Positions 707 through 58,244 of a stretch of 64,000 nt of DNA are shown here, in pieces. Numbering within the stretch: the stretch's first letter is position 1; each line of letters opens with the position of its first letter. The notes under the pieces were generated by a model that saw only the letters and a list, made by a program, of their open reading frames with translations, was not told the origin of the DNA and searched no databases. A program made the translations under genes and the position numbers. Source of the DNA: Alphaproteobacteria bacterium UBA6187 (GTDB taxonomy: Bacteria; Pseudomonadota; Alphaproteobacteria; Rickettsiales; UBA6187); contig DITJ01000104.1 in the NCBI GenBank assembly GCA_002422795.1, forward strand, positions 15,324-79,323. The letters run 5' to 3'.

Positions 707-1450
707 ATGCGCAATTTTAAAAACATTTCGGGCTTCTCGCTAGTGGAATTATCAGTTACTTTACTGATAATAGGAATTGTAATTGCTGCAATAACTAGTG
801 GCTCAAGTCTTCTGCAAGCTGCAAAAATCAATAAAACAATATCTGAAATCACCGGCTATGTTGCGGCCGTAAATAATTTCAAGGATAAATATAAAGCCTG
901 GCCGGGAGATATGCCCAATGCTACCAGCTATTGGGGCGCTACTGTGACAAACGGCAATGGGGATGAAGAAATATTGGACATTTCAGTGTCAGAAAATTTA
1001 TTAGCCTGGAGACAATTAGCCCTATCCGGACTAATTGCAGGCAATTATACTGGTACTTATGCTGAGTCTGCTTCTGGTGATTCAGAATATTTTGCGGCCG
1101 GGATTAATTCTCCTGCAAGCTCAAGTGCCTATAAAGGATCGTATTATTTTTTAGGTAGTCATTTCGATGTGTTTGACACTACGGGCATTTCTTTGCAATT
1201 AGGATCAAGCAAAGGTTATTATGAACCCTGGGGAGGGGCACTTTCGCCAGAAGATACACATATTATAGATGTAAAAATAGATGATGGGTTAGCATCTACA
1301 GGTAATTTTTATGGTTTTCGTAGCAATATATATTTGGGTGTAGCCAACCGTTGTGTTGATAATGATTATAATGTTAGCAGCGCAAATTATGTTCTTACTG
1401 ATAGAACGGTCAACTCATGCCGCATGTTTTACTGGATTAAAAAGGATTAA
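707..1450 (+). CDS. Type IV pilin / pseudopilin-like protein with prepilin N-terminal methylation motif (247 aa)
   Basis: Leader MRNFKNISG then FSLVELSVTLLIIGIVIAAI, giving Gly at -1, Phe at +1 and Glu at +5. There is a C-terminal Cys pair (NRC...NSC). It is a paralogue of 57510-58244, sharing motifs W(R/Q)xLAL..LI.G.Y.G and ID.KIDDGL...G.F. Confidence 0.8.
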   Translation: MRNFKNISGFSLVELSVTLLIIGIVIAAITSGSSLLQAAKINKTISEITGYVAAVNNFKDKYKAWPGDMPNATSYWGATVTNGNGDEEILDISVSENLLAWRQLALSGLIAGNYTGTYAESASGDSEYFAAGINSPASSSAYKGSYYFLGSHFDVFDTTGISLQLGSSKGYYEPWGGALSPEDTHIIDVKIDDGLASTGNFYGFRSNIYLGVANRCVDNDYNVSSANYVLTDRTVNSCRMFYWIKKD

Positions 1451-35728: not shown

Positions 35729-35811
35729 TAAAACCGTGTATATAAATAAACAATAATAAGAATAAAATATATCTTATATTATTTAAGAGAATAGAAAATT
35801 AGGAATTAAAA

Positions 35812-36834
35812 GTGCAATATTTAACCAGTTTAGAAAAAGTAATAAGAGGTTTTCCAGGTGATTCTGTTCCTATCTGGCTTATGAGACAAGCAGGCAGGTA
35901 TCTGGAAGAATATAGGAATGTGCGCAGCACTACCAGTAGTTTCCTTGAATTTTGCTATAGTCCTGAAAAAGCTTCAGAAGTAACTTTACAGCCTATAAGG
36001 CGCTTTGACTTTGACGCTGCTATAATATTTTCAGATATTCTTGTAATACCTGATGCACTTGGTGTGGATGTTTCCTTTCTAGTTGGCGAAGGGCCAAAAC
36101 TTGCAAAAATTACTGCTAATGATATAGGTAATTTAAAATATAATCCAAATAAGCTTCTACCTGTCTATGAGGCTATAAAAATGGTTAGGGCGGGTCTTGC
36201 CCCACAAAAATCCTTAATAGGCTTTGCAGGAGCTCCCTGGACGCTTGCAACCTATATGATTGAAGGTGGAGGTAGTAAAGATTTCCATAATACTAAATCA
36301 TGGGCTTATGCTGATCCTAAATCTTTCAGGAAATTAATTTATATTCTGGCTGATAGTATAATCATTCATGCGATTGCCCAAATAAAAGCCGGTGCAAATA
36401 TAATCCAGTTATTCGATAGCTGGGCTGGCACAGTTGCTGCTGGCGATGAATTTAATAAATGGGTGATAGAACCGACTGCTTATATAATTTCTAAAATAAA
36501 AGCCCAATTCCCAAATATCCCTATAATTGGTTTTCCGCGGGGAGCTGGGGTTGCTTATGTTGACTATGCTAATAAAACTGGAGTTGGTGCTATATCGGTT
36601 GATTATAATATGCCGCTTGAGTGGATAGCCAGTAAAGTTGATATTACCATTCAAGGTAACCTTGACCCATTGCTTTTAAAGTATAATCTGGAAGGCACTT
36701 TAATCCAGGCAAAGAAAATATTGGATATTATGAAGGGGCAGAAATTTATATTTAATTTGGGACATGGGATATTACCGGAAACTCCTATTGCTAATGTTGA
36801 AGCGTTGGTAAATTTAGTTAAAAACTATAGATAA
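35812..36834 (+). CDS. hemE: Uroporphyrinogen decarboxylase
   Basis: 340 aa with [15 protein letters not shown] and FSDILV blocks. The ORF begins with GTG. Confidence 0.93.
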
Positions 36835-36839
36835 TTAAA

Positions 36840-37826
36840 ATGAAAAAAGCTGTAATATTATTTAACCTTGGTGGCCCTGATAGTCTTGATGCGGTTGAAC
36901 CTTTTTTATTCAACCTGTTCAATGATAAAAATATCATAACCATACCAAATCCCATGCGGTTTTTTCTGGCGAAACTTATCTCCGGTAAAAGAGCGCCTAT
37001 CGCTAAGGAAATTTATAAAAATATTGGCAATAAATCCCCGATATTAGAAGAAACTGAAAAGCAGGCAGTGGCTTTGGAAAAAGCTTTAAATTCCATCACT
37101 AATCACCAATCACCAATCACCTACAAAACTTTTATATCAATGCGTTACTGGCATCCTTTTTCATACGAAACTATTGAAAAGGTAAAAGAATTTAACCCTG
37201 ATGAAATTATCCTTCTGCCGCTTTATCCGCAATTTTCAACCACAACAACAAAATCATCTTATGATGACTGGCATAAAATATCTAAGAAAAATGGATTAAA
37301 AATTCCTGTTAAAACTATATGCGGATATCATTTGGATGAAGATTTTATTACTGCGCACTCTAATATTATTAAAAAATCCTACGAAGAAATAGGTAATACA
37401 AAAACCAGGATTTTATTTTCTGCACACGGATTACCTGAAAAAATAATTAAAAAAGGCGATCCTTACCAAAAGCAAATAGAAGAAACAGCTGCTGCAATCG
37501 TAGCTAAATTATCTATAGAAAACCTTGATTTTGTAGTTTGTTACCAATCACGTGTTGGTAGGTTAAAATGGATAGACCCCAGCACAGAAGATGAAATAAA
37601 ACGCGCAGGTGTTGATTCTTTGGAAATTATTGTAGTTCCTATTGCTTTTGTATCTGAGCATTCAGAAACTTTAGTGGAACTTGATATTGAATATAAGCAT
37701 CTTGCGAAAGAATCTGGGGTAAAAAATTATTACCGAGTTCCTACACTTGGTGTGGATGATAATTTTATAAAAACACTGGTAAATGTTTGTATAAATACCG
37801 AAGAATTTAAATGTAATTGCTATTAA
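36840..37826 (+). CDS. hemH: Ferrochelatase
   Basis: 328 aa with [15 protein letters not shown] and SAHGLPE blocks. Confidence 0.93.
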
Positions 37827-37860
37827 TAGTATCATTTTTAATATAAATACATATTCAAAT

Positions 37861-38625
37861 ATGCCCAATAAATTACAAAAACCAAAGAAAATCAGGGCTG
37901 ATGAATTTTTACTAATTAATAGCCTTGCAGAAAATATTGAGCAGGCGCGTGCGCTTATAATGTCTGGTCTGGTTCTGTATGATGAAAAACCAATTACAAA
38001 GCCTGGTATATCTATAAACCAAGATGCTAAAGTACGAATAAAAAATCCCAAAGGGCATTCGTGGGTTTCACGTGGCGCAATTAAGCTGGAACATGCATTA
38101 AAGGAATATGCTATAGATGTAACTGGTATGATAGCTGTTGATGTTGGTGCATCCACCGGAGGATTCACTGATGTGCTTCTTCATTATGGGGCTAAAAAAG
38201 TATTTTCTGTGGATGTAGGTTATGGAGAGCTTGCATGGAAATTGCGCAATGATGATAGGGTGGTATTGCTTGAGCGCACCAATGCCAGATATTTAACAGA
38301 AAAAGAAATAACTGAAACTCCAGATATAATCGTATGTGATGCCAGCTTCATAAGCCTTAAAACTGTTCTCCCTGCTTCTTTAAAACTTGCAAAATCAGGA
38401 ACTATACTAGTGGCGCTGATAAAGCCGCAATTTGAGGTAGCGCAGGAAGAAGTTGGCGATAAGGGGGTAGTTTTAGATGTTCTACTACATGAACGTGTGT
38501 GCGCTGAAATTAGGAATTGGCTTGAACAAATGCCTGATTGGGAAGTAATTGGCATCACAACCAGCCCTATTAAAGGGCCGGAAGGTAATGTAGAGTTTTT
38601 AATATTTGCTAAAAATATACTTTAG
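37861..38625 (+). CDS. tlyA: TlyA-family rRNA 2'-O-methyltransferase (hemolysin A)
   Basis: S4-like N-terminus (RADEFLL...) and an FtsJ-like domain (VDVGASTGGFTDVLL). Confidence 0.88.
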   Translation: MPNKLQKPKKIRADEFLLINSLAENIEQARALIMSGLVLYDEKPITKPGISINQDAKVRIKNPKGHSWVSRGAIKLEHALKEYAIDVTGMIAVDVGASTGGFTDVLLHYGAKKVFSVDVGYGELAWKLRNDDRVVLLERTNARYLTEKEITETPDIIVCDASFISLKTVLPASLKLAKSGTILVALIKPQFEVAQEEVGDKGVVLDVLLHERVCAEIRNWLEQMPDWEVIGITTSPIKGPEGNVEFLIFAKNIL

Positions 38626-40354
38626 AGTTCTGCTCCCAGGATTTCTCAATCGTTTTTTCAATATCAGCATTATTTATGCCTACCTCTTCCATAAGCAAAC
38701 GAGCAATGCGCAAGCTTGATTCCAGCGTTTCCGCTACAACATATTTTGCTCCCATATCATATAATCTATCCATATCTTCCGTATCTTTTGAGCGCATGAT
38801 AACGGGAAGTGTTGGCCATTGGGCCCGTATGGATTTAAGCATATTATCTGTAGATGAGTGATCGTCAATGGCAATAACTGCGGCAATAACTGCCCCATTA
38901 TGAATTTTATGCCATAATTCCATTTTCCTGGCGTCTCCATAGATTATTCGGCAACCTTGTTCTTTAAGTATTTGAACCCGCTCAACATTATTATCAATAG
39001 TAATATAAGGTATTTTTTGTTCTTCAAGTAACTTGCCAAGCAATTGCCCTACACGGCCAAAACCTGCAATTATAACAATTCTTTCATCAGTTTGAGTGGT
39101 TTCTTCCGTAGATATTTCAGGAAATATCCGGTTAGCAAAATCTCCAGCCAAAGGTGCCAGCCTAAATAATAAAGGTGTCAGCATCATTGCTGTTGCGGTT
39201 ACAAGAAGGAAAAACTGTGCAGATTCTGTAGGTATGAGTTTTGCAATTAATGCCACGTTAATAATCAGTAACGCAAATTCCCCAGGCTGGGCAAGAAATA
39301 AGGCCGCCTGCGCCGAACGTCTTCCTGAAATCTTAAACCATCTGCAAACAGGAAAAATAATACTTGCCTTCACCACATATATCCCAATTACAGAAGCTAA
39401 AAGAAGTAATGGTTGCCTTGCAATTTCAGCTAAATTAATCATCATTCCTATGGAAAGGAAGAACATACCAAGCAACATGCTTTTTAAGGGAGTTATGATT
39501 ACGTCGACTTCGTGCCTGAACTCAGTTTCTGCAATTAACAGACCTGCAATAAAAGCACCAAGCGCCGGGGAAAGACCGGCAAAATGGGTTATGCTAGCGC
39601 AGGCAATAACAAAAAATATAATAAATGCAATTAACCACTCTGCATTACGTGAAATACTTATATATTTCAGAATCGGCCTTAGCAGGCGCCTTCCTGTAAT
39701 ATACATTATTACTACAGTTAATGTGCCAGCAACTAAAGCACTTAAGATCATACCGCCGGTATTTCCTGTATCCCCACCTGAAAAAGCACCCGCTAAAACA
39801 AGAATAGGGACAACAGCCAAATCTTGCATAAGCAGAATAGAAAAACACAAAATACCAACCGGGCGGTTTACAAGGCGGCGCTCTTCCAAGAGCTGCATTA
39901 CAATAGCAGTAGAGGAAAGGGCAAAAGATGCGCCAATAAGTATTGATGCCTGCAAAGAATTATTGAAAAACTTTGCTAACAGAAAAATAACTATAGTGGT
40001 AGCAAGAATTTGTATGCTACCAAGACCAAAAACCAGACGTTTTAATTCACGTAGGCGGGTTAATGATAACTCAAGCCCAATCATGAACATCAAAGCGATT
40101 ATTCCCAATTCCCCCATAGAGCGCACAGTAGTGCTATCTTTAATGGTAAATGGCACAAGCCAAGGCATTTCACTGGAAAATAATGCAAGTCCGTAAGGGC
40201 CAATTACAATGCCACACAGAAGATATGCCAGAACAGGTGAAATTTTAATACGTTGTAATAGAGGTACGGCAAGTCCGGCAAGTCCAAAGAACAGCAGAAT
40301 ATTTGACATTAAGTCTATTATGTGTCCTGGATCTGATATTTCCGAATCAATCAT
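38609..40354 (-). CDS. CPA2-family K+/H+ antiporter with C-terminal RCK/TrkA-N domain (KefB/C-like)
   Basis: 581 aa with about 12 TM helices, then IIAGFGRVGQ as the Rossmann motif. Its 3' end overlaps the tlyA 3' end by 17 nt (convergent). Confidence 0.88.
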   Translation of the reverse strand: MIDSEISDPGHIIDLMSNILLFFGLAGLAVPLLQRIKISPVLAYLLCGIVIGPYGLALFSSEMPWLVPFTIKDSTTVRSMGELGIIALMFMIGLELSLTRLRELKRLVFGLGSIQILATTIVIFLLAKFFNNSLQASILIGASFALSSTAIVMQLLEERRLVNRPVGILCFSILLMQDLAVVPILVLAGAFSGGDTGNTGGMILSALVAGTLTVVIMYITGRRLLRPILKYISISRNAEWLIAFIIFFVIACASITHFAGLSPALGAFIAGLLIAETEFRHEVDVIITPLKSMLLGMFFLSIGMMINLAEIARQPLLLLASVIGIYVVKASIIFPVCRWFKISGRRSAQAALFLAQPGEFALLIINVALIAKLIPTESAQFFLLVTATAMMLTPLLFRLAPLAGDFANRIFPEISTEETTQTDERIVIIAGFGRVGQLLGKLLEEQKIPYITIDNNVERVQILKEQGCRIIYGDARKMELWHKIHNGAVIAAVIAIDDHSSTDNMLKSIRAQWPTLPVIMRSKDTEDMDRLYDMGAKYVVAETLESSLRIARLLMEEVGINNADIEKTIEKSWEQNSKVYF

Positions 40355-40574
40355 TTATGTTTATTAACCGCAGGATTGAACATGATAAACAAATTACCCT
40401 GTTCATAGCAACTCCGCAACGGATAATTAACTGATTGTTAAGTATTTGGTGGTATTATTTTATTTCCGGCATCAATCAGTAATTGTAAGGAATTGCTAGA
40501 AAAATTGGTTGTATGAGGAAATTAATACCAGGTTTCATTTAAATAATGAACTGGGTATAAAATGGGCATGTAGC

Positions 40575-42689
40575 ATGGATTTTAATACTACAATTAATAA
40601 TTTAAAAACAAAGCTGCAGATACTTGCCGGAAAAATAAAAACCTGCAAGTTACCTGATAAGAGCGCACTGAAAACAGATAAGATTATAGCATGCACTTCT
40701 AATTTTGCTAAACATGGTTTTAGCGCCATTGGAAAATATAGTTATGAACATGAAAATATCCTTGGGCTGGAAATAAGCCCCCATTATATCCGCATATGCC
40801 AGATGAAGAATTCTTATGGCAGATGGAGCCTTAACCAGCTTGCATCAGCATGTATGGAAAGTCAGTTTACCCTTAGGGATATACAATCAAATCCTGAAAT
40901 ATATACTGAAAACCTGAAGATTCTTATCGCAAAGCATCATATAAAAGCAAAAGAAGTTGCTTTATCAATCCCCACATCCAGTTCCATTATCAAAATAATA
41001 AATATACCTGATATGGAAGAAGATGAGCTGGCACAGGCAGCAGGTATGGGCGGAATCTGGGAAAGTCTTGTAGAGTTAAATGGTGGAATACATGAATATT
41101 CAGTATATTATAAAATATTAAACCGCAAAATAAAGCCATCTTGCAGCCTTGCGGAAAGAACCATACATGAATCGCAAGATATCTATCTAGAAAGTAAAAA
41201 TGAAACTACCGCTGAACCTGCAATAACATCATTTAATTTAGAAAATTTATTACAAGTCGAGACCGCCCCCCTTGTAGAGGAGCAGTTACAGGAAGATCCT
41301 AATATCACCGCTACCACCACGGAGACGCAAGACGGAACGATAGCAGCAGATGAAACTTCCACAATACAGGAAGAAGCGCCGCAAGAAGCATCTATAGAAG
41401 AGGCCGAAGAAGAAGCAAACACCATGGATGTGCTGTTTGTTGCCGCCAAAATAATGGATATACAATTATATCTGGATATAGTGAAAAAAGCCGGGCTTAT
41501 CCCTATTATTGCGGATGTTAAATGCAACGCCTTAAAACATGCTTTTGAAACAAACCCTGAAAGGGATAAAACACCGGGGCCTTACGCACTACTGGAATTC
41601 GGTGCGGATGAGAATTATATTTACATAATAAATGGCGCTCAAACTATTATATTTAACATAAATATAACCGATCATGATAGAGATCTTGTGGCGCAAAATG
41701 AAACCAACCAAAGCGCAGTATCAGGATTTGTGCAAAGATACGCAGGCCAGTTGCAGGAAATCCTTGATGAGTACACCAAGAAATATAATAATAAAATCTA
41801 CAATATTTATGTTAGTTCAGCTACCCCTTTGCATGTTGATAAGGCAGCATCAGAGCCGCTTATAAATATGTTTATCAATAATATAACGCAAATAATGGGA
41901 GATTATAAAATATCGCAATGTACTTTCTGTAACCATATAGAAGTACCTGCCGAATTTGCAAAAAAAGTAAATGCAGAAGGTAACCTTGCTGCATGGGCAA
42001 CAGTTCTTGGACTTGCCACATATAAGCTGGATGTATTTGATTATAATAAAAAATGCGATGTAATTGATAGGGTTAACTTACTCCCTGGCGCTGAAATACA
42101 AAAGAAAAGCCGTGTTTTGCAATTGCTCAGTGCTTTGGTAGTATCGGCGGTTTTTGCATTTGTTGTTACTACGTCAGTATTAACATTCTTATTACTTATT
42201 ATTAATAGCAATAGCCTTTCCAGCCAGATAAACGGCCTTGCAAGTGTAAAAAATGAATATGAAACAAAAAACAACGAGATGCAGAAACTTAAAAATGTTA
42301 TGGATAAGGTTAAATCTCTGGATTCTGTAAAGGATACCTTGCCTTCAAACCAGGCCCAGGTTATTGGTGTGTATAAACATATCACCCAATCTATCCCGGA
42401 AGGCGTATGGCTTAGCGAGATTAATTTCAGCCTGCCTAAATTTGCAGAAATAAGGGGTAATTCTATAAATGACCAGAATATCCTTGAATTTATTAAAAGG
42501 CTGAATGAATCAGGCGGGTTCAAGAAAGTATCCCTTAAAACCATGGAAGTGGTTGATAAGGGTGATACTAAAACCACTACATCACCCGCGGTTGGCACGT
42601 ATAATGTTAAAAGATTTGCAATCCAGTGCGAGCTTATGCTAGATGCCGCAGCCACAAAGCTGGAAATCATTTCAAGTGGGGTAAAATAA
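40575..42689 (+). CDS. Fused PilM-PilN-like type IV pilus alignment protein with a ~100-aa acidic insert
   Basis: The N-terminal part is PilM/actin-like (LGLEISPHYIRICQ..., VLFVAAKIMDIQLYLDIVKKAGLIPIIADV). Residues about 520 onward are PilN-like (VNLLPGAEIQKK, a TM helix and a periplasmic domain). The start is uncertain, either TTG 40509 or ATG 40575. Confidence 0.7.
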   Translation: MDFNTTINNLKTKLQILAGKIKTCKLPDKSALKTDKIIACTSNFAKHGFSAIGKYSYEHENILGLEISPHYIRICQMKNSYGRWSLNQLASACMESQFTLRDIQSNPEIYTENLKILIAKHHIKAKEVALSIPTSSSIIKIINIPDMEEDELAQAAGMGGIWESLVELNGGIHEYSVYYKILNRKIKPSCSLAERTIHESQDIYLESKNETTAEPAITSFNLENLLQVETAPLVEEQLQEDPNITATTTETQDGTIAADETSTIQEEAPQEASIEEAEEEANTMDVLFVAAKIMDIQLYLDIVKKAGLIPIIADVKCNALKHAFETNPERDKTPGPYALLEFGADENYIYIINGAQTIIFNINITDHDRDLVAQNETNQSAVSGFVQRYAGQLQEILDEYTKKYNNKIYNIYVSSATPLHVDKAASEPLINMFINNITQIMGDYKISQCTFCNHIEVPAEFAKKVNAEGNLAAWATVLGLATYKLDVFDYNKKCDVIDRVNLLPGAEIQKKSRVLQLLSALVVSAVFAFVVTTSVLTFLLLIINSNSLSSQINGLASVKNEYETKNNEMQKLKNVMDKVKSLDSVKDTLPSNQAQVIGVYKHITQSIPEGVWLSEINFSLPKFAEIRGNSINDQNILEFIKRLNESGGFKKVSLKTMEVVDKGDTKTTTSPAVGTYNVKRFAIQCELMLDAAATKLEIISSGVK

Positions 42690-43501
42690 TGCCAATAGAC
42701 TTAAATATGGATATGGGAACTGTAATTAAGGATCTGATAAGTAAGTGCAGGAATAGCAATGCGTCGGGTCAAACTTCCTCTAATGTTAATGGGAAGCTGC
42801 CTATTGCTGCATATAAAGTTGCAATAATAATATCTATATTAATGATATTGGTTATAATTACTTATATTACTTTTATATACCTGCCTTTAAAAGAAAAGAA
42901 CCATCAGAAAGCTGATGAGCTTAATAAAATTCTGGAAATGAAAACCCAGCTTAGCGTTTTAGACGAACAAATAGATACTCTTAAAAAGAGGCTGGATAAA
43001 TCCAAGGAAGAATATATTGAAAGTCTTTCCAATTTCGGCAGTAGTGATGATTTAGGCAGCCTTTACCAGGTTGTAAGTACACTTGCTGCAAAATATAACC
43101 TTGTGGTTCTTAATGTAAAGGAAATAGCCCTGCCTCCACCGCCGCCTCCTGCAGCTAAAACAACTGTAACAGAAACCCCGGGCGCAAACGCTGAAAAGAA
43201 AGATGATAAAGTCGCAAGCGCTACTCCAGCCGCTCCTGCTGCTAAGGCAGCTGGGGTGAGTGTAAAGGAAAGCCGGGTGGAGCTGGAGCTAAAAGGGCAT
43301 TATGGCGAATATATAAAATTTAAGGAAGACCTGGCGATTGCAGCAGCTTTGCTTAAGATTAACTCCGAATCCATAATAGTTAAGAATGAAACAACCGAGC
43401 AAGGCAGTATCTACGTAAAATTAAACCTTAGTACCTATGCAATAGATAAAAAACCGTTCCAAGGCATAATTACGGATAAAGAAAATGAAAAAACTCAGTA
43501 A
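42689..43501 (+). CDS. pilO: PilO-like protein with Pro/Ala-rich linker (270 aa)
   Basis: A TM helix, a coiled coil (LKEKNHQKADELNKILEMKTQLSVLDEQIDTLKKRL) and a linker PPPPPPAAKTT...AAPAAKAAG. Its ATG overlaps the upstream TAA (TAATG). The assignment is by position and architecture. Confidence 0.6.
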   Translation: MPIDLNMDMGTVIKDLISKCRNSNASGQTSSNVNGKLPIAAYKVAIIISILMILVIITYITFIYLPLKEKNHQKADELNKILEMKTQLSVLDEQIDTLKKRLDKSKEEYIESLSNFGSSDDLGSLYQVVSTLAAKYNLVVLNVKEIALPPPPPPAAKTTVTETPGANAEKKDDKVASATPAAPAAKAAGVSVKESRVELELKGHYGEYIKFKEDLAIAAALLKINSESIIVKNETTEQGSIYVKLNLSTYAIDKKPFQGIITDKENEKTQ

Positions 43502-43901
43502 AACTATTCTTCTGGCATTGATAACAGCGTCCGGCATAGCTGTGGCTGCGGATAGGGACCCATTCTTGCCCTACACCTGGTCAACGCCTGCGGCAACAAC
43601 CGATACTAATAGTGCTAATATAAATACAGATAGTAAAATAAGCCCGTTAATTGATAAACCGCTTTCTGCATATACGGTAATCGGCGTGGTAGTATCGCCA
43701 AATGACGCCCTTGCAGTTTTAAAATCAAGGGATAAGCGTGAATATTTTGCCTATATCGGCGACCCGGTAGGTTCTGAAGGCGGTGTTTTAGAAACTATCA
43801 ACACAGAAGGTATATCCGTTGATATGGGTGGTAAGATTGTGACTTTAAAGGTAAGTAACCGATTTGAGATGCAAGATGAAAAACAAGATGAAAAGAAATA
43901 A
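43485..43901 (+). CDS. pilP: PilP-like periplasmic protein
   Basis: 138 aa with a signal peptide, then the RDPF motif (AADRDPFLPY) and a beta-rich C-terminus. There is no lipobox Cys. Confidence 0.65.
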   Translation: MKKLSKTILLALITASGIAVAADRDPFLPYTWSTPAATTDTNSANINTDSKISPLIDKPLSAYTVIGVVVSPNDALAVLKSRDKREYFAYIGDPVGSEGGVLETINTEGISVDMGGKIVTLKVSNRFEMQDEKQDEKK

Positions 43902-45444
43902 CCCAGTTGCAAAAATTTTGCTGCTGCTGCTCCTCGCTGGCTGCATAAAAGGCGAGAAAGCCTTTGATGGCAAGCTTATTGAGTCAAAATCCATGCTTGA
44001 CCAGAAGCAGTTCATTAAAGAAACCGAACCGAGGCTGGAAGAATCTGCCAAATACGGCCCGAAGATAACAGAAATTGATGAAACAAACATCCGTGAAGAA
44101 GCCAGCACGTTTATTAATAAAGAAGAGGCGCAAGGCTATGTTTCCGTGGGTGATGCGTCAGAAGCATTCCCAATTGATATAAATGTTGAAAATGTTGATA
44201 TCAGAACATTCACCCAGATGCTTTCAAAAATCACCGGTGTAAATTTTCTGGTATCTGATGAAGTAAGCGGCTATGTAACCGCAGAATTACACGATGTTCC
44301 ATGGCCTAATGCACTTGATTCAGTACTTAATTTAAAATCGCTTGCAAAGCATGTAGATAATAAAGCCAATGTTATCCGCATCCACAGCCAGGATTCAATA
44401 GTGAAACTTGAATCATTCGACCGCCAAAGACGCGAAGATTTGCAAAAAACCCTTGTACTTGAACGCGCTACCGAACCTTTCTATACAGAAGTATTTAAAC
44501 TGTTTTATTCTAAGCCTGATAAAATGAAGGCTGTTTTAGCAGAAGTACTTGGCATAGGCGCAGCTCCCACTGCAGGCTCGGCAATGCCGGTTGCCCAGAT
44601 AACCATAGATACCCGCATGAACCAACTTATTGTAAAAGCGCGCAAAGAAGATATGGAAATCGCAAAGAAACTTATCGCTAAACTTGATTCCCGCACTAAG
44701 CAAATATTCATCGAAGCTTTTATAGTTGAGGCAACCGATGACTTTGAAACTGCACTTGGTACGCGGCTGGGCGGTAACTTTACACAAGGTTTCACTAACC
44801 AGGGCAAAAACTTTAATGTGCGCAGCACTGGTCTTGCTGGCACAGCAGCAAATGCTGTTGCAGCTGGCGATACTTCTGCCACATTTACTAACATGTCTGC
44901 AATCAGCAAAACTGGCGTCACTAGTGGCATTGGTTTTCTTGCAGGCGTTGGCGACGCGGTTGACCTGAAATTTGAACTGAGTGCCTTAGAGAATAAAGGG
45001 CTTTCCAAAGTTATTTCCAACCCAAGGCTGTTCACCCTTGATAACCAGGAAGCTGTGATATTCCAAGGCACCCAGGTTCCTTACAGCACCACATCGGCAG
45101 ATGGTACAAAAATTGAATTTAAAGATGCTGGCTTAAAACTGGCCGTAACCCCAAGCGTTGTGGGTGATGGTAATTTAATGTTGGCGATTGCTGTTAATAA
45201 AGATACAGTAGACCTTACTCAGGCATTGCCGCCTATAACAAAAAGTACAATCACTACCAACCTTGTTACTAAAGACGGCTCAATAGTGGTAATTGGCGGT
45301 ATATATACGCAAACAAAAGCAGATGGCAGCGATAAAGTTCCCGGCCTTGGTGATATTCCGGTAGCTGGCAAACTATTCCGCCGCGATAATAATTCGAACT
45401 CTAAAAAAGAATTAATGATATTTATATCACCTAAGATTTTGTAG
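43876..45444 (+). CDS. pilQ: Secretin (PilQ-like) with lipoprotein signal peptide
   Basis: The C-terminal secretin domain has VPGLGDIPVAGKLFR...ELMIFISPKIL. The N-terminus MKNKMKRNNPVAKILLLLLLAGC carries a lipobox. The start is ambiguous (43864 TTG, 43876 or 43888 ATG). Confidence 0.85.
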   Translation: MKNKMKRNNPVAKILLLLLLAGCIKGEKAFDGKLIESKSMLDQKQFIKETEPRLEESAKYGPKITEIDETNIREEASTFINKEEAQGYVSVGDASEAFPIDINVENVDIRTFTQMLSKITGVNFLVSDEVSGYVTAELHDVPWPNALDSVLNLKSLAKHVDNKANVIRIHSQDSIVKLESFDRQRREDLQKTLVLERATEPFYTEVFKLFYSKPDKMKAVLAEVLGIGAAPTAGSAMPVAQITIDTRMNQLIVKARKEDMEIAKKLIAKLDSRTKQIFIEAFIVEATDDFETALGTRLGGNFTQGFTNQGKNFNVRSTGLAGTAANAVAAGDTSATFTNMSAISKTGVTSGIGFLAGVGDAVDLKFELSALENKGLSKVISNPRLFTLDNQEAVIFQGTQVPYSTTSADGTKIEFKDAGLKLAVTPSVVGDGNLMLAIAVNKDTVDLTQALPPITKSTITTNLVTKDGSIVVIGGIYTQTKADGSDKVPGLGDIPVAGKLFRRDNNSNSKKELMIFISPKIL

Positions 45445-45687
45445 TGGTGGAGAGATTACCCTAGTAAGCTAGTAGTGCAGAAATTAAATTTGTAGTAATT
45501 TTACTTTAAAATTCTCTATTATTTCATTTGTGCAGGTGCGCTAGTGTTCGCTATAGTGTTGTTTTGATAATTAATTGGTATTATAGTATTTCCCATTTTC
45601 AATAATGATGCGTCAATCATCATCTCATGTAGCTCACCTACACATCGACTCGATTTCCTATCATTATTGAAAAGCGAAAACACTATA

Positions 45688-46674
45688 TTATATAACTTTA
45701 ATAGAATCCTTAAACTTCATATATTGCGTCCTTTCATAAATCTTTACCCAATCTTTAACCATCTTCTGTGATGAATAATTTTTAAGGACATATTCCTGGC
45801 TGAGTTGCAAATAATGGCTTCGCTCTTCAAAAGAGCGTAACTTATTTATCAATTCTACAATGCCCGAATTTGATGTAAAAAGATAATTTTCAAGACCGCA
45901 ATTCGTTAAAAGCCTTTGATAAGCCGGAGTTTTACTTGCTATTACAGGAACGCCCCGGTTTATAGCAAGAACCGCCTTATTTTCTGACTTACAATAAGTG
46001 TTAACATCAAAATCAGTGGGAACATGACTTAATACACATGCATCAAAGGTTTGCAGCAATGCGGGAAATGTTTCTGGGGTATATTGGTGAATTATACAAT
46101 TTTGTACTTTGCCGTAATGCTTGTTTTTGGTAACAATATGATATTCAATTTCTTTTTCTAAATGTAAGGTAGTTAGTGTGTGTTCGTGTGCTATCATGGA
46201 CTTTTGATAAGAATCCGGATACCCAAACCACACAATTTTTAAAGGCTTTTTATTGTCTGTAGGCTTTTTAAATGAATTGGTAAAGCCAAAATCAATCGGG
46301 TCTAAGAGAACTTCAACCGAACGGTTTGTAAATAGTTGTACAACATCCTTCATTTCCGGGGTTGGCAGTAAAAGAACATCCACAAGCTCTGACCATCGTT
46401 TTAATGACGGAATCAATTTATTGCTGATATCTGGAATAAAAAGCATAATAACGGCATGTTGTGCGCGCTTCTGCAATAAGGATACAAGTCTTGGGTTCGT
46501 ATCAAGATCAATCTTTAAGCCGTTAATCAATATTCCAGATACTTTTTCATTGCTTTCTTGTAAACGACAAAAATTAAAGCCTGCAGGTTTTTGAGCAATT
46601 AATGGATTAAATTTCACGCGATGAACTACGCCATCAGGGTAGGGACTAAGGATTTCAATATTGTTTTTAAGCAT
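45688..46674 (-). CDS. Hypothetical protein, possibly a GT-B-type glycosyltransferase
   Basis: 328 aa. The C-terminal half (KIVWFGYPDS..., NRGVPVIASKTPAYQRLL) resembles a GT-B sugar-donor domain. The call is weak. Confidence 0.35.
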   Translation of the reverse strand: MLKNNIEILSPYPDGVVHRVKFNPLIAQKPAGFNFCRLQESNEKVSGILINGLKIDLDTNPRLVSLLQKRAQHAVIMLFIPDISNKLIPSLKRWSELVDVLLLPTPEMKDVVQLFTNRSVEVLLDPIDFGFTNSFKKPTDNKKPLKIVWFGYPDSYQKSMIAHEHTLTTLHLEKEIEYHIVTKNKHYGKVQNCIIHQYTPETFPALLQTFDACVLSHVPTDFDVNTYCKSENKAVLAINRGVPVIASKTPAYQRLLTNCGLENYLFTSNSGIVELINKLRSFEERSHYLQLSQEYVLKNYSSQKMVKDWVKIYERTQYMKFKDSIKVI

Positions 46675-46879: not shown

Positions 46880-48778
46880 ATGAAATATGATGTTATAGTT
46901 ATTGGCGGCGGCCATGCAGGATGTGAGGCCGCTGCGGCTTCTGCCCGGACGGGTGCAAAAACTATGCTTGCCACATTAAAGCCTGAGAATCTCGGTGAGA
47001 TGTCTTGCAATCCCGCAATCGGTGGAGTGGCAAAAGGAACGCTAGTTAGAGAAATTGACGCATTAGACGGTGTAATGGGGCGCGTTATAGATAAAGCCGG
47101 CATCCATTTTCGCATGCTTAATGCCAGTAAGGGCCCGGCTGTTTGGGGGCCGCGCGCACAAGCAGACCGCAAATTATACAAAAAAGCTATGCAGGAGATC
47201 CTGCCTGAAATTTCCAATCTTGATATAAAAATCACTTCTATTGAAAATATCATCCTTGATAAAAACAATGCGGTTGCTGGAGTTGAAACATCAACTGGCG
47301 AAGTTATAAATTGCAAAGCTGTTGTGCTTACTACAGGTACGTTCTTGCGTGGCCTTATTCACATGGGGGAAGTTAAAATCCCAGCAGGCAGAGTAGGGGA
47401 GCAGCCGTCAATAGGCTTATCAGATACATTGCAAAGATTTAATTTCAATCTTGGGCGCCTTAAAACGGGCACGCCTCCAAGGCTGGATGGCAGGACAATA
47501 GATTGGTCGGGCTTAGAAAAACAACCAACAGATAATCCACAGCAGCCGTTTTCTTATCTCACTGACAAAATTACCACTCCACAAATAGATTGCTACATCA
47601 CCAAAACCACACTGGCAACGCGTGACTTAATACAAGCGAATGTGCATCGCTCACCAATGTACTCAGGGCAGATATCCAGCATTGGGCCAAGATATTGCCC
47701 TTCAATTGAAGATAAAATTGTAAGATTTGCAGATAAACTAACCCACCAGATATTCCTTGAGCCGGAAGGGTTGGATGATGATACGGTTTATCCAAATGGC
47801 ATTTCAACGTCACTTCCAGAAGAGGTGCAAATCGAAATATTAAAAACGATTCCGGGCTTAGAAAATACCAAAATGTTCCGGCCTGGCTATGCAATAGAAT
47901 ATGATTTTGTTGATCCGCGTGAATTACGAGCAACATTAGAAACAAAAAAAATTCCTGGCTTGTTTCTTGCCGGGCAAATTAACGGAACCACTGGTTATGA
48001 AGAGGCTGGCGGGCAGGGGATAGTTGCTGGCATAAATGCCGCAAGACTTGCTGGTAATGGCGTTGCTGATTTCATATTGGATAGATCTGAAGCCTATATT
48101 GGCGTGATGATTGATGATTTAATAACGCTTGGCACATCAGAGCCTTATCGTATGTTTACCTCAAGGGCTGAATACCGCCTTAGTTTGCGCAGCGACAATG
48201 CGGATTTGCGCCTTACACAAAAAGGCATTGATGCGGGATGTATATCTTCTATAAGAACCGAGGCATTTAGTAAAAAAGAGCGGCTTCTAACTGAAGCAAA
48301 AAACAAAATGCTATCTGTGAATATTTCACCCAATGAGGCGGAAAAATCTGGCGTTTTTATAAATAAAGATGGTGTGAAGCGCAGTGCCTTGGAGCTTCTG
48401 GCGATGAATAATATAGGCTTTGATGGCGTAAGTAAAATTTGGCCGGAATTTAAGGACCTTCCTGCTGATATTATTCAGCAGCTCTCCATTGAGGCGGTTT
48501 ATTCTGTATATTTAGAAAAACAGCAGGCCGATATTGTTACTTTCCGCAAAGATGAAGAGGTTCATATACCTGAAGATTTTGATTATGATTCGCCCTCAAT
48601 AAGCCTTTCAAATGAATCCAGGGTAAAATTCAAGAAAGCTTTGCCACATACTATTGGTGCGGCAGCACGAATTCCGGGGATTACTCCGGCGGCTGTTACC
48701 TCTTTGTTAGTGGCGATTAAGAAGCGCAAAACAATAAGGTCGCATAGCAATGCAATGTTTCACGTGAAACACCCATAA
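46880..48778 (+). CDS. mnmG: tRNA uridine-5-carboxymethylaminomethyl modification enzyme MnmG (GidA)
   Basis: 632 aa with [16 protein letters not shown] and NPAIGG blocks, and full-length similarity to GidA. Confidence 0.96.
48756..48771. promoter_or_regulatory. parS site inside the last codons of mnmG
   Basis: Exact TGTTTCACGTGAAACA, encoding MFHVKH at the MnmG C-terminus. Confidence 0.85.
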
Positions 48779-48798
48779 ATTTATAATCTGATCTTTTC

Positions 48799-49416
48799 AT
48801 GACACAATTAAATATTCTGAAATCCATAACTGGAAATTCTAATTTCTTACAGGATAAAATCACTAGTTTGCAGGATTTCTCGGAGCTGCTTCTAAAGTGG
48901 AACCAGAAAATTAACCTGGTGAGTAAGAAAATTACTGCGGAAGAGTTATGGCAGAGGCATATATTAGATTCGGCTCAATTATTAAAATACATTCCCGGCC
49001 AAAGTAAAATAGTTGATTTTGGCAGTGGGGCCGGGTTCCCGGCCATTATATTGGCGCTTTTAAGTGATGATGAAATCACATTAGTAGAAAGTGACCAGCG
49101 TAAATGTGCTTTTATGCAGGAAGCTAAGGCAAAATTTAATTTGAATATAAATGTTATTTGCGCGCGCATTGAAGATGTAAAACCATTTGATGTGGATGTT
49201 ATAACCTCACGGGCATTGGCCCCATTACAGAATTTACTGGAATATTCTTACCCTTTCTACAAGAATGATAATTATATGCTTTTCTTAAAGGGGCAGAATG
49301 TGTTAGAAGAAATAAAGGAAGCATCAATATATTGGGATTTTACCCATGAGCTATTCCCTGATGCCGTAAATAAAGAAGGTGGCGTGTTAAAAATTTCTAA
49401 TTTAAAGAGGCTATAA
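48799..49416 (+). CDS. rsmG: 16S rRNA m7G527 methyltransferase RsmG (GidB)
   Basis: 205 aa with DFGSGAGFPAI as the SAM motif, in the canonical position after mnmG. Confidence 0.92.
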   Translation: MTQLNILKSITGNSNFLQDKITSLQDFSELLLKWNQKINLVSKKITAEELWQRHILDSAQLLKYIPGQSKIVDFGSGAGFPAIILALLSDDEITLVESDQRKCAFMQEAKAKFNLNINVICARIEDVKPFDVDVITSRALAPLQNLLEYSYPFYKNDNYMLFLKGQNVLEEIKEASIYWDFTHELFPDAVNKEGGVLKISNLKRL

Positions 49417-50222
49417 TGACATCTAACCTTGCAAAAGATAACACCAAAATAATGGCATTGGTTAACCAGAAAGGTGGGGTGGGGAAGACGACGACGGCTG
49501 TAAACCTCGCAACCGCCCTTTCTGCAACCAGAAAAAAAGTTTTACTTATAGATTTAGATCCACAAGGCAATGCTAGCACCGGTCTTGGAATTGAAGGCAA
49601 GCTACGTAAGAATAACAGCATTTATGAAGTTTTGGTAGGTTTAAGAAACATTGAAGACGCGGTGATAAAAACAAAAATTCCTGGCTTAGATATAGTACCA
49701 GCAAGCGTGGTGCTTTCTGCCGCTGAAATTGAGCTGGTAGGAGTTGAATCTAGGGAGTTTGTACTCAAATCTTTATTAAACGGCCTATCTAAAAAATATG
49801 ATTACATACTTATAGATTGCCCACCATCATTGGGGCTGCTTACTTTAAATGCCTTGGTTGCCTCTAATTCAGTGATGATCCCCCTGCAATGTGAATTTTT
49901 TGCGCTAGAGGGGCTTAGCCATTTATTAAAAACTGTGGAATTAGTAAAAAAGAAGCTCAATCCGGCACTTTCTATCCATGGAATTGTACTTACCATGTAT
50001 GATAAACGCAATAAATTGACAGAACAGGTAGAGCTTGATGTAAGAAAACATCTGGGAGACGATGTTTACAAAACAGTTATTCCAAGAAATATAAAAATTT
50101 CAGAAGCGCCGTCACACGGACAGCCAGCAATTATTTATGATTATAAATCGGCTGGTTCAATGGCGTATTTGCACTTAGCGAAAGAAATGCTGCAAAGAGA
50201 AAAGAGGGCGGTTGCCGTTTAA
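49416..50222 (+). CDS. parA: Chromosome partitioning ATPase ParA
   Basis: Deviant Walker A NQKGGVGKTTT. The ATG overlaps the rsmG stop. Confidence 0.94.
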   Translation: MTSNLAKDNTKIMALVNQKGGVGKTTTAVNLATALSATRKKVLLIDLDPQGNASTGLGIEGKLRKNNSIYEVLVGLRNIEDAVIKTKIPGLDIVPASVVLSAAEIELVGVESREFVLKSLLNGLSKKYDYILIDCPPSLGLLTLNALVASNSVMIPLQCEFFALEGLSHLLKTVELVKKKLNPALSIHGIVLTMYDKRNKLTEQVELDVRKHLGDDVYKTVIPRNIKISEAPSHGQPAIIYDYKSAGSMAYLHLAKEMLQREKRAVAV

Positions 50223-50232
50223 TATTGCAAAA

Positions 50233-50248
50233 TGTTTCACGTGAAACA
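50233..50248. promoter_or_regulatory. parS site between parA and parB
   Basis: Exact TGTTTCACGTGAAACA. Confidence 0.85.
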
Positions 50249-50277
50249 TATATTTATTTAAAATAAGGAAAAGCATA

Positions 50278-51153
50278 ATGAAAATATCAAAACAAGCACT
50301 AGGTAAAGGACTTTCCGCATTAATCTCGACTGATGATGATGACTTTCAAACAGCAGAAAGATTGCAGCCACTGGAGATGCCTTTAAATTTATTGGTGGCT
50401 GGGAAATCGCAGCCAAGGGGGTATTTTGAAGAGAGTAGCTTGCAGGAGCTTGCTGAATCTATTAAGAAAAATGGAGTTATTCAGCCCATTTTGGTGAGGA
50501 AATTAAATGATATAAGCTATGAAATAATTGCTGGAGAGCGTCGTTTCCGCGCTTCAAAACTGGCCGGATTACAGACCATGCCTGTAATTATAAAAGAATT
50601 AGATAACCGGCAAGCATTGGAATTAGCCCTTATAGAAAATATCCAAAGAGAAAACCTTACTGCAATTGAAGAAGCTGAGGGGTATAAACGCCTACAGGAA
50701 GAATTTAACTACACGCAAGAGCAATTAGGTAATGTTTTAGGAAAAAGCCGTAGCCATGTAGCAAATATGCTGCGTTTATTAACCCTGCCGCAATCAATAA
50801 AAGATATGTTAAATTCCGGGTTGATTTCTATGGGGCATGCCAGGGTATTGGTGGGGGTGGAGGGTCCACAAGCATTAGCTGAAAGAATAGTTAATGAAGG
50901 GCTAAGTGTGCGTGATGCTGAAAAGTTTGCCAGCGGTAGTATGCATAGTCAAGTTACAGCAAAAGAGCGTCAACCGAGTCAGAAAAGAAATAACTCTACC
51001 GCATCTAGCGCGCAAAAGGATGAGGATTTATTGCTTATAGAAAGATCTTTATCAGATTTACTTGGTATGAAGATTTCTATTGAGGAAGATCGTGTTGTGC
51101 TTTACTACAACAATCTTACTGAACTAGATAAGATATTGCAAAGGATAGGTTAA
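50278..51153 (+). CDS. parB: Chromosome partitioning protein ParB
   Basis: 291 aa with the GERRFRA box and an HTH region (QEQLGNVLGKSRSHVANMLRLL). Confidence 0.94.
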   Translation: MKISKQALGKGLSALISTDDDDFQTAERLQPLEMPLNLLVAGKSQPRGYFEESSLQELAESIKKNGVIQPILVRKLNDISYEIIAGERRFRASKLAGLQTMPVIIKELDNRQALELALIENIQRENLTAIEEAEGYKRLQEEFNYTQEQLGNVLGKSRSHVANMLRLLTLPQSIKDMLNSGLISMGHARVLVGVEGPQALAERIVNEGLSVRDAEKFASGSMHSQVTAKERQPSQKRNNSTASSAQKDEDLLLIERSLSDLLGMKISIEEDRVVLYYNNLTELDKILQRIG

Positions 51154-57509: not shown

Positions 57510-58244
57510 ATGTTTGCTTCACATACACAAAGAAAAAAAGCCTTCACTTTAATTGAGCTCTCGGTTGTTATTGTAATAATCGGGCTTATCGTTGCGGGAA
57601 TAGTTTCTGGAACGAACCTTGTACGACAAGCAAAGTTAATTGCTATAACTAAAGATGTAAATAGGTATGTAGCTTCAATAAATAGCTTTAAGCTATTATA
57701 TAATGCACTTCCTGGGGATATAAAAAATGCATCTTCGTATTTCCCCGGCGCTAATGATGGAAATGGCAATAACTTTATTAATTGGCAAGGCACAGACTAT
57801 GAGGATAAATTGGCGTGGCAACATCTTGCATTAGCAAACTTGATAAATGGCAAATATAGTGGTTCAGGTTCTGGGCCTCCATATGTTGCAGGGGTTACTG
57901 TTCCATCTGGTCCATTACCCAGAAGTGCGTATTGGCTTACAGAGGCTGTTGCATCAAATCCTTTTTCTGACATATGGGGATATGGTGGAACTAATATACA
58001 GTTTGCCGCCCAAATAGGAAGCGGTAGTAGTAATTATCCAATTGGGCCAATAATAACAGCTATAGAAGCATATGCTATAGATAAAAAAATTGATGATGGG
58101 CTTCCAAATAAAGGTACTTTTATGGCTCGTAATGGCGTGTTTGCAGTAAATCCATGTACAAGCTCCTCAGCCCCTTACACATATATAACTTCATCTAGTG
58201 ATCTATCATGTAGGATATTTTTCTTTATAAGTTCAAAACGATAG
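57510..58244 (+). CDS. Type IV pilin / pseudopilin-like protein, paralogue of 707-1450 (244 aa)
   Basis: Leader MFASHTQRKKA then FTLIELSVVIVIIGLIVAGIV, with Ala rather than Gly at -1 and Glu at +5. There is a C-terminal Cys pair (NPC...LSC). It shares the WQHLALANLINGKYSG and IDKKIDDGLPNKGTF blocks with the other paralogue. Confidence 0.8.
   Translation: MFASHTQRKKAFTLIELSVVIVIIGLIVAGIVSGTNLVRQAKLIAITKDVNRYVASINSFKLLYNALPGDIKNASSYFPGANDGNGNNFINWQGTDYEDKLAWQHLALANLINGKYSGSGSGPPYVAGVTVPSGPLPRSAYWLTEAVASNPFSDIWGYGGTNIQFAAQIGSGSSNYPIGPIITAIEAYAIDKKIDDGLPNKGTFMARNGVFAVNPCTSSSAPYTYITSSSDLSCRIFFFISSKR

Follow-up and report, generated by a model that had tools for sequence, protein, structure and literature searches.

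Does an operon that encodes PilM and PilN as one protein still serve a type IV pilus, or does it belong to a machine that is part pilus and part type II secretion system (T2SS)? The question is raised by a 64,000-nucleotide (nt) stretch of contig DITJ01000104.1 from Alphaproteobacteria bacterium UBA6187 (here the window; positions are numbered within it), which also lies within the 142-kb metagenome contig k141_1091743 (ENA ERZ27315062). A preliminary description of this DNA had noticed a fused PilM-PilN protein followed by PilO-, PilP- and PilQ-like proteins, and had read the whole as a divergent hybrid of the two machines. We conclude that the region is very probably a type IVa pilus operon (pilMN-pilO-pilP-pilQ), which encodes the secretin and the alignment complex that spans the envelope, and that it is carried by an uncultured environmental alphaproteobacterium labelled Rickettsiales.

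Four open reading frames (ORFs) lie on the forward strand (40509/40575-42689, 42626/42689-43501, 43485-43901 and 43864/43876-45444 in the ORF listing), and between 40575 and 45444 their order is pilMN-pilO-pilP-pilQ. The ATG of pilO overlaps the stop codon of pilMN (TAATG at 42687-42691), pilO and pilP share 17 nt, and pilP and pilQ share 26 nt. Because the starts and stops of successive genes overlap, we treat the four as a single translationally coupled operon. Its boundaries cannot be called, since a promoter and terminator scan of 40300-45750 gave counts no higher than those of shuffled sequence. The genes and the parts of the fused protein are as follows, with the basis of each assignment in parentheses (aa, amino acids).

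40575..42689, + strand: pilMN, the fused PilM-PilN protein, 704 aa (Pfam, PDB profile matches, AlphaFold2 [AF2] and Foldseek, starts of homologues)
40575..40748, + strand: N-terminal extension, aa 1-58, before the first PilM beta-strand (family alignment, AF2)
41130..41420, + strand: acidic insert, predicted disordered, aa 186-282, 97 aa (composition, predicted local distance difference test score [pLDDT], loop lengths)
42072..42086, + strand: VNLLP, the PilM-binding motif of PilN, aa 500-504 (alignment, profile, AF2)
42114..42203, + strand: transmembrane (TM) helix of PilN, aa 514-543, 30 residues (hydrophobic stretch; AF2 helix 506-585)
42351..42644, + strand: periplasmic ferredoxin-like domain of PilN, aa 593-690 (Pfam PilN, Foldseek)
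42689..43501, + strand: pilO-like, 270 aa (AF2 model, Foldseek, weak Pfam)
43485..43901, + strand: pilP-like, 138 aa (weak Pfam, family profile, gene order)
43876..45444, + strand: pilQ secretin, 522 aa (TIGR02515, Pfam)

PilM is a cytoplasmic actin-like ring protein, and PilN is its bitopic membrane partner. Here both occupy one ORF, as first described, and both exceed their Pfam gathering scores: PilM_2 (PF11104) reaches 43.8 bits against a cutoff of 27 (E 2e-11), and PilN (PF05137) reaches 35.4 bits against 22.8 (E 1.1e-8). The gene had initially been started at TTG 40509, which would give 726 aa; the true start is probably ATG 40575, because every homologue begins M-D/N-F/L-N (MDFN/MNLN). 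The Pfam PilN match covers aa 602-686 of the 704-aa form, equivalent to 624-708 of the 726-aa ORF. A profile of the fusion family, compared with PDB sequences, matched Myxococcus xanthus PilM (E 5.6e-19) and M. xanthus PilN (E 1.9e-5), and the latter alignment begins at PilN residue 4 (RINLLP). Thus, the whole of PilN, including the peptide that binds PilM, is appended to a complete PilM.

The predicted structure gives the same picture. An AF2 model of the fusion, built from a 22-sequence alignment (mean pLDDT 72), has a globular core modelled with confidence (aa 50-190 and 280-500), a helix (506-585) and an alpha/beta domain (593-690). When the cytoplasmic domain was compared with the PDB using Foldseek, PilM structures came out on top (5EOU, 5EOX, 2YCH and 3JC8_M; E 2e-15 to 3e-13), with TM-scores of 0.71-0.74 to 5EOU and 2YCH, or 0.67-0.74 with 3JC8_M included (the maximum, 0.74, is measured on the target). 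FtsA stood behind PilM (E ~1e-8), and the cytoplasmic domains of EpsL/GspL ranked below both (E 8e-6 to 1e-3, TM-score ~0.56). As modelled, then, the cytoplasmic domain is a complete PilM/FtsA-type fold with four subdomains. This agrees with the PilM/actin-like N-terminal part proposed at the outset, and a Pfam search of the fusion returned no GspL family at E<=1.

The PilN hallmarks that had been pointed out, a motif, a single TM helix and a periplasmic domain, are likewise all in place. VNLLP aligns to M. xanthus PilN residues 4-9 and is now internal, 9 residues past the last PilM element (ATYKLDVFDY). Across the family alignment N501 is invariant and L502 almost so, and fusions from SAR11 carry INLLP. 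The linker and motif are modelled at pLDDT 81-90, comparable to the globular core, and the helix that spans the membrane continues as a coiled coil to about aa 585 in the AF2 model. An engineered protein offers a useful comparison: 5EOU is a single-chain Pseudomonas aeruginosa PilM that carries PilN residues 1-12 (MARINLLPWREE) as its C-terminal residues 361-372. The joint, with PilN after the PilM C-terminus, is the same as in the natural fusion, although 5EOU is an artificial construct with a shorter linker and no more of PilN than those 12 residues. This single chain indicates that a PilM-PilN joint is compatible with a folded PilM:PilN complex.

A protein of this shape inevitably recalls GspL (EpsL/PulL/XcpY) of the T2SS, which is also a bitopic chain, actin-like in the cytoplasm and ferredoxin-like in the periplasm, with a single TM helix in between. 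The likeness in membrane topology, which the preliminary description had stressed, is exact, and reviews treat GspL/PulL as equivalent to a PilM-PilN fusion (PMC10191384, PMC4471445). In addition, the periplasmic domain of our fusion superposes on those of XcpY, EpsL and PulL (TM-score 0.71-0.81 in Foldseek). These are grounds for thinking that the fusion is a GspL equivalent, and that the module secretes proteins through a lipidated secretin and makes no surface pilus. However, the cytoplasmic domain is far nearer to PilM than to GspL (E 1e-15 against 8e-6; TM-score 0.71-0.74 against 0.56). The fusion has a full-size PilM-type domain, whereas the cytoplasmic domain of GspL, which binds GspE, is reduced, and it retains the PilN peptide motif, which GspL lacks. 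Its partners are PilO, PilP and PilQ rather than GspM, GspC and GspD. The resemblance to GspL is one of architecture, not of membership.

Could the fusion instead come from an error of assembly or sequencing, or from a stop codon between pilM and pilN that was lost recently? The source is a metagenome assembly, and model organisms normally have pilM and pilN side by side as separate genes. Against this, the identical protein is recorded under both NCBI and ENA, and inspection of the PilM/PilN junction found no stop or start signal. A search of 5.8 billion proteins showed that 31 of 31 close homologues (30-57% identity) are fused, which settles the proposed check for conservation in relatives and speaks against a recent single-base event. 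Using HMMER, a search of 1.84 billion cluster representatives gave 75 matches at E<=1e-30 and 133 at E<=1e-10. Some 100 of the representatives, of 510-940 aa, have one match that spans the C-terminal half of PilM and continues into PilN; canonical PilM proteins of ~350 aa turn up in this library only at E>1e-12. Hundreds of independent genomes of SAR11 and Rickettsiales-like bacteria, from single cells and from metagenomes, contain the fusion, and JGI automatic annotation tags several homologues as "PilM family ATPase/PilN." Because the fusion is conserved across relatives, we exclude an artefact or recent stop loss and regard its residual probability as negligible.

The distribution of the fusion tells us more about its age. 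When one genome per species (GTDB) was scanned, 350 relatives came to light, and the best 80 of those were examined as loci. They come from metagenome-assembled genomes (MAGs) labelled Rickettsiales, Rickettsiaceae or Alphaproteobacteria (34-41% identity), and mostly from Pelagibacterales, i.e., SAR11 (28-32%). In nearly all 80, a single ORF covers query residues ~10-55 to ~660-700 and is followed downstream by PilO-like, sometimes recognizable PilP-like, and PilQ-like ORFs. The fusion is conserved down to 22-30% identity across the Rickettsiales-like MAGs and SAR11. As judged from these comparisons of sequence, SAR11 and Rickettsiales-like alphaproteobacteria share an ancient PilM-PilN fusion that runs through the whole lineage. 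Natural PilMN fusions have been described before, in type IV pilus clusters of Clostridioides difficile (PMC7057214, PMC6143707) and in Campylobacterota (bioRxiv 10.1101/2025.02.19.638559), so the fused architecture as such is already known. Those fusions have the same domain architecture and stand in bona fide type IV pilus clusters of other phyla; the acidic insert and a lipidated PilQ are not reported for them.

The number and placement of the genes vary among the relatives. A second PilMN-like ORF, paralogous to the first, occurs in several Rickettsiales-like MAGs (locus L006, 7888-9834; L007, 2-1288; L012, 600-2483; L009, 18633-20300), and for two of these loci, L006 and L012, Pfam confirms both PilM_2 and PilN. 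The extra copy directly precedes the main pilMN in L006 and L007 and follows it at a distance of ~7 kb in L009, while on the contig shared by L008 and L012 it is ~20 kb upstream; the L012 copy has a short, 8-aa loop. A tblastn search for a second PilMN paralogue in our window found none. In a 52%-identical freshwater relative (L086/L087, 15448-16602), the four genes form a stand-alone pilMN-O-P-Q operon two genes from dprA-topA rather than at the gidA locus, from which we take it that the operon moves as a unit between genomic contexts.

The proteins downstream of the fusion also point to a type IVa pilus. Foldseek placed the AF2 model of the PilO-like protein closest to the PilO structures of M. 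xanthus (3JC8_O, E 2.4e-6) and P. aeruginosa (2RJZ/5UVR), followed by Amuc_1100 and EpsM; this fits the plan of PilO, a bitopic protein with a coiled coil and a ferredoxin-like core. Less came from sequence: the PilO family profile searched against PDB sequences found no PilO, only coiled-coil noise, and an hhalign comparison of the PilO and PilMN families aligned the post-TM coiled coil alone (probability 7%). The Pro/Ala-rich segment noted earlier is present (aa 148-189, 42 aa; nt 43130-43255), but it is not a linker; in the model it is a predicted disordered insertion between two beta-strands within the periplasmic core domain. For the PilP-like protein, the family profile matched M. xanthus PilP (3JC8_P, E 4.7e-4), Neisseria meningitidis PilP (2IVW) and the GspC HR domain. 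PilO and PilP, not GspM and GspC, are the best structural and profile matches.

Canonical PilP is an inner-membrane lipoprotein with a beta-sandwich domain. Here, as the preliminary description correctly reported, the PilP-like protein keeps the conserved RDPF (aa 24-27) and has no lipobox; its signal peptide ends in an AVA|AD cleavage-type site (AVA|ADRDPF) and contains no Cys. In the alignment, the signal peptides of the PilP relatives are likewise of the ordinary kind and show no lipobox Cys; the one oddity is L068, with a non-canonical Cys-Cys. The lipobox is instead on PilQ, also as first described: L-A-G-C occupies aa 20-23 (nt 43933-43944), at the end of the N-terminal signal peptide (MKNKMKRNNPVAKILLLLLLAGC). 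Of 70 related PilQ N-termini, every one has a Cys at the end of the signal peptide, within a strict lipobox in 59 and within an LNGC- or LNAC-like variant in the others. Given the conserved Cys of PilQ and the missing lipobox Cys of PilP, the lipid anchor is predicted to sit on the secretin and not on PilP.

The secretin itself is a PilQ. The NCBIfam model TIGR02515 scores 343.9 bits against a cutoff of 284.35, while GspD reaches 219.9 bits against a cutoff of 351, and the HofQ, MshL and SctC models also stay under their cutoffs. An MSHA-type system was among the candidates considered and was rejected (MshL 103 bits against 250). Pfam recognizes an N0 domain, one Secretin_N domain and the secretin domain, and no AMIN domain matched at E<=1, in line with the earlier reading. 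The AMIN domain is not universal in PilQ. A lipidated secretin does bring the T2SS back into consideration, because the known self-piloted lipidated secretin, HxcQ of P. aeruginosa, belongs to a T2SS, according to a passage in PMC3230066 that cites it. The likeness consists of an N-terminal lipobox on the secretin, with lipidation in our case predicted from sequence. Such a lipobox means that a separate pilotin could be unnecessary, and no PilF/PilW/Tgl-like gene was seen in the operon. Still, it is the PilQ model that this secretin passes and the GspD model that it fails.

If this is a pilus operon, where are the pilus and its motors? Two genes in the window encode type IV pilin-like proteins.

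707..1450, + strand: type IV pilin-like, 247 aa, class III signal peptide ...ISG|FSLVELSVTLLIIG (Pfam N_methyl above cutoff, motif scan)
57510..58244, + strand: type IV pilin-like, 244 aa, class III signal peptide ...KKA|FTLIELSVVIVIIG (Pfam N_methyl above cutoff, motif scan)

The pilin at 57510 is 36% identical to that at 707, and a look-up found no database record for it. Two further pilin genes lie just upstream of the window (L004, 6092-6856 and 7033-7800, both on the - strand), so that the contig has four dispersed pilin paralogues of ~250 aa. They are 29-60% identical and share class III signal peptides and C-terminal Cys pairs, and for type IVa major pilins they are unusually long. The pilB, pilC, pilD and pilT genes, by contrast with the pilins, were not found in the window, as had been remarked, nor in the ~9 kb of contig examined upstream; the PilB/T Walker-A motif scan found none in the window, and between 54.9 and 56.4 kb the negative comes from this motif scan alone and not from Pfam. 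Among the 80 related loci, 71 have an ORF with a PilB/T-type Walker-A motif, and in those inspected a PilB-sized ORF (493-642 aa) directly follows pilQ. At that place the UBA6187 contig has an ORF of 328 aa without a Pfam family (45688-46674, - strand).

These observations complete the comparison with a secretion machine. The absence of pilB and pilT from the window would suit a hybrid, but pilins of ~250 aa with C-terminal Cys pairs, and a PilB-sized ATPase ORF beside pilQ in relatives, would not. Because the cytoplasmic domain has a PilM-type fold, VNLLP is kept, the secretin is PilQ and not GspD, pilins are present and relatives have the ATPase ORF, the hybrid interpretation is unsupported, and we consider it very unlikely. 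The same genes bear on another possibility, that PilMN-O has been exapted as the scaffold of a different machine, with no working pilus, much like FcpMNO in the flagellar cage of Campylobacterota. PilMNO homologues have indeed been co-opted by flagellar motors (bioRxiv 10.1101/2025.02.19.638559, PMC10823254), and in the UBA6187 organism no ATPase gene is adjacent. Yet pilP and a full pilQ secretin are kept and translationally coupled, pilin genes are present, relatives have the adjacent PilB-sized ATPase ORF, and there are no flagellar genes nearby. We give exaptation only a slim chance.

The window also contains a pel-type exopolysaccharide cluster (23260-28324, + strand), with GAF-domain (PelD-like), TPR (PelE-like), and DUF3492 plus glycosyltransferase (PelF-like) genes, and PelG. 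Type IV pili and pel clusters have been reported in the environmental Rickettsiales families Mitibacteraceae and Athabascaceae (Schön et al., PMC9352585), and the combination on this contig matches that gene content.

What would such a pilus be for? A type IVa system whose pilus serves chiefly for DNA uptake (competence), and not for adhesion or twitching, deserves consideration. DNA uptake is what SAR11 authors propose for their type IV pilus genes (PMC12789548), models of the DNA-uptake porin HofQ match our secretin, if under cutoff, and the operon is two genes from dprA in the 52%-identical relative. On the other hand, dprA and topA are commonly found as a conserved pair, the window shows no such linkage to the operon, and neither comEC nor comEA was seen. 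Adhesion or biofilm formation would also suit the pel genes and the four large pilins of this contig no less well. In all, we find a mainly competence-related role possible but doubtful.

Several observations weigh against our reading of the region as a type IVa pilus operon and should be kept in view. The TIGR01175 PilM model gives the fusion 67 bits, below its cutoff of 133. In a low-scoring alignment, the GG of the adenosine motif of M. xanthus PilM (LSGGT) falls on SS (VSSAT), so ATP binding may differ from that of canonical PilM. Pfam PilO is weak on the PilO-like protein (E 0.034) and Pfam PilP reaches 19.3 bits against a cutoff of 25.6 (E 0.0012); with both below their gathering scores, the identity of these two proteins rests on fold, profile and gene order. 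With the motor genes missing from the DNA examined, as noted above, the pilus machine in the UBA6187 genome is only presumed to be complete. Docking of VNLLP in the PilM groove is something we infer rather than see in the model coordinates, and the system of this lineage as a whole is known from sequences and predicted structures.

Set beside the type IVa PilMNOPQ systems of P. aeruginosa, M. xanthus and Thermus thermophilus (3JC8, 5EOU, 2YCH, 2RJZ), the operon shows both likenesses and differences. The M-N-O-P-Q order is shared, as are the actin-like fold of PilM; the INLLP motif, TM helix, coiled coil and ferredoxin-like domain of PilN; the PilO fold; the PilP beta-domain after (R)DPF, as supported by the family profile; and a PilQ that exceeds the TIGR02515 cutoff. 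Unlike in these models, PilM and PilN form one chain rather than separate non-covalent partners, PilM has a ~47-aa N-terminal extension and a 97-aa acidic loop predicted to be disordered, PilO has a 42-aa Pro/Ala insertion, and PilP lacks a lipobox while PilQ is a predicted lipoprotein without AMIN. Nor is pilB adjacent to the operon in the UBA6187 organism. The clusters of SAR11 and environmental Rickettsiales also have a homologous fused PilMN (28-41%) followed by PilO-, PilP- and lipobox-bearing PilQ-like genes. The differences are that the inspected loci have the PilB-sized ATPase ORF after pilQ, and that SAR11 PilMN has an 8-residue loop instead of the acidic insert and often an N-terminal extension of ~250 aa.

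The two additions to PilM can be described further. The N-terminal extension had been put at about 60 aa; it exists, but with the corrected start it exceeds canonical PilM by ~47 aa (P. aeruginosa PilM residue 4 corresponds to position 48 of the family profile). Within it, the motif LGKYS is conserved, and aa 35-58 are predicted to form a helix. The acidic insert of about 100 residues stands as described: it has 25% D+E, 3% K+R and a net charge of -21, and it fills the loop of the hairpin formed by the strands EYSVYYKIL and MDVLFVAAK. Its pLDDT of 29-43 (about 30 over aa 190-278) predicts disorder. The equivalent loop is exactly 8 residues in 72 SAR11-like loci and in other short-loop members of the family. 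In the 30 database homologues in which it could be measured, it is 8-262 aa long (median 105), and 40-262 aa in all but three distant ones. The inserts are strongly acidic throughout and often Pro-rich, with no conservation of sequence, and so the loop appears to be disordered and conserved in composition. On the strength of the models and alignments, the acidic insert is a clade-specific, length-variable disordered surface loop on the PilM domain. It might keep parts of the machine apart as a spacer, electrostatic or entropic, or it might be a segment on which a basic partner docks at the cytoplasmic ring.

Other members of the family are extended elsewhere. Many SAR11 PilMN ORFs run ~200-280 aa further upstream in frame (for example, L054, 9368-10000; L040, 3477-4190; L013, 518-1360; L064, 9227-10000), through acidic low-complexity sequence and a well conserved block of ~70 aa (HQVIHKKDGRLHIYVRQDKYKGELKSKNWVGRLYIDGKQKISSSGT...). 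Pfam found nothing in this extra N-terminal domain of the SAR11 PilMN proteins. In a Rickettsiales MAG (L010, 9920-12775), PilMN has a Pro/Glu-rich C-terminal tail of ~400 aa past the periplasmic PilN domain, which points to disordered extensions at differing positions in differing lineages.

How might the fused system work? We suggest that VNLLP would still dock into the PilM groove, either in cis or onto a neighbouring subunit, on the basis of the confident modelling of linker and motif and of 5EOU having been built as a single chain. The fusion would fix PilM:PilN stoichiometry at 1:1 and, by analogy with GspL in the T2SS, would tether the PilM ring permanently to the membrane. In the periplasm, PilN and PilO would pair as heterodimers, and a soluble, non-lipidated PilP would link PilNO to the N0 domain of PilQ. 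PilQ, which has no AMIN peptidoglycan-binding domains, may pilot itself to the outer membrane via Lol, by means of the lipid anchor at its N-terminus and with no pilotin. The filament would be made of the ~250-aa pilins encoded elsewhere on the contig, and the motor ATPases, platform protein and prepilin peptidase would have to be encoded elsewhere in the genome.

Upstream of the operon are hemE, hemH, tlyA and kefB, and downstream are mnmG (gidA), rsmG (gidB), parA, parB and addB; the closest named relatives of MnmG (66-69% identity) are from MAGs labelled Rickettsiales or Alphaproteobacteria. The gene set that flanks the operon at 33812-38625 and 46880-51153 (Hda-like, hemE, hemH ... gidA, gidB, parA, parB) is of the kind typical around an alphaproteobacterial replication origin, and the cumulative GC skew of the window has its minimum near 22-24 kb, with an upturn at ~24 kb. 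A Wzy-like gene lies at 58722, for which a look-up gave only a 1.6-kb Logan contig. An Rfam scan of the whole window returned nothing at gathering score, tRNAs included.

A tempting over-interpretation is thus corrected: this is a normal type IVa alignment and secretin operon and not a new hybrid secretion system. Three comparative points emerge, namely the lineage-wide fusion, the lipid anchor on PilQ instead of PilP, and the acidic loop gained by one clade. In the literature searched, we found no description of a lineage-wide SAR11/Rickettsiales fusion, of a PilP-to-PilQ lipid-anchor swap or of the acidic loop. We raise tentatively, as something we think less probable than its opposite, the idea that Rickettsiales and SAR11 may carry a distinct, undescribed subtype of the type IVa basal body, with a tethered PilM, a lipid anchor on a self-piloting AMIN-less PilQ and, in the environmental Rickettsiales clade, an acidic, disordered loop of 40-262 residues, conserved in composition, that would project from every PilM subunit of the cytoplasmic ring. 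The comparative points open no new kind of system. They may interest those who model the type IV pilus basal body, those who study the unexplained pili of SAR11 and those who trace the free-living ancestry of Rickettsiales by their type IV pili. If the acidic loop is functional, it could gate or recruit motor ATPases, or hold the nucleoid away. The idea that PilM and PilN bind reversibly reportedly stems from work on P. aeruginosa; if a covalent PilM-PilN serves both extension and retraction, pilus dynamics would not need such reversible binding.

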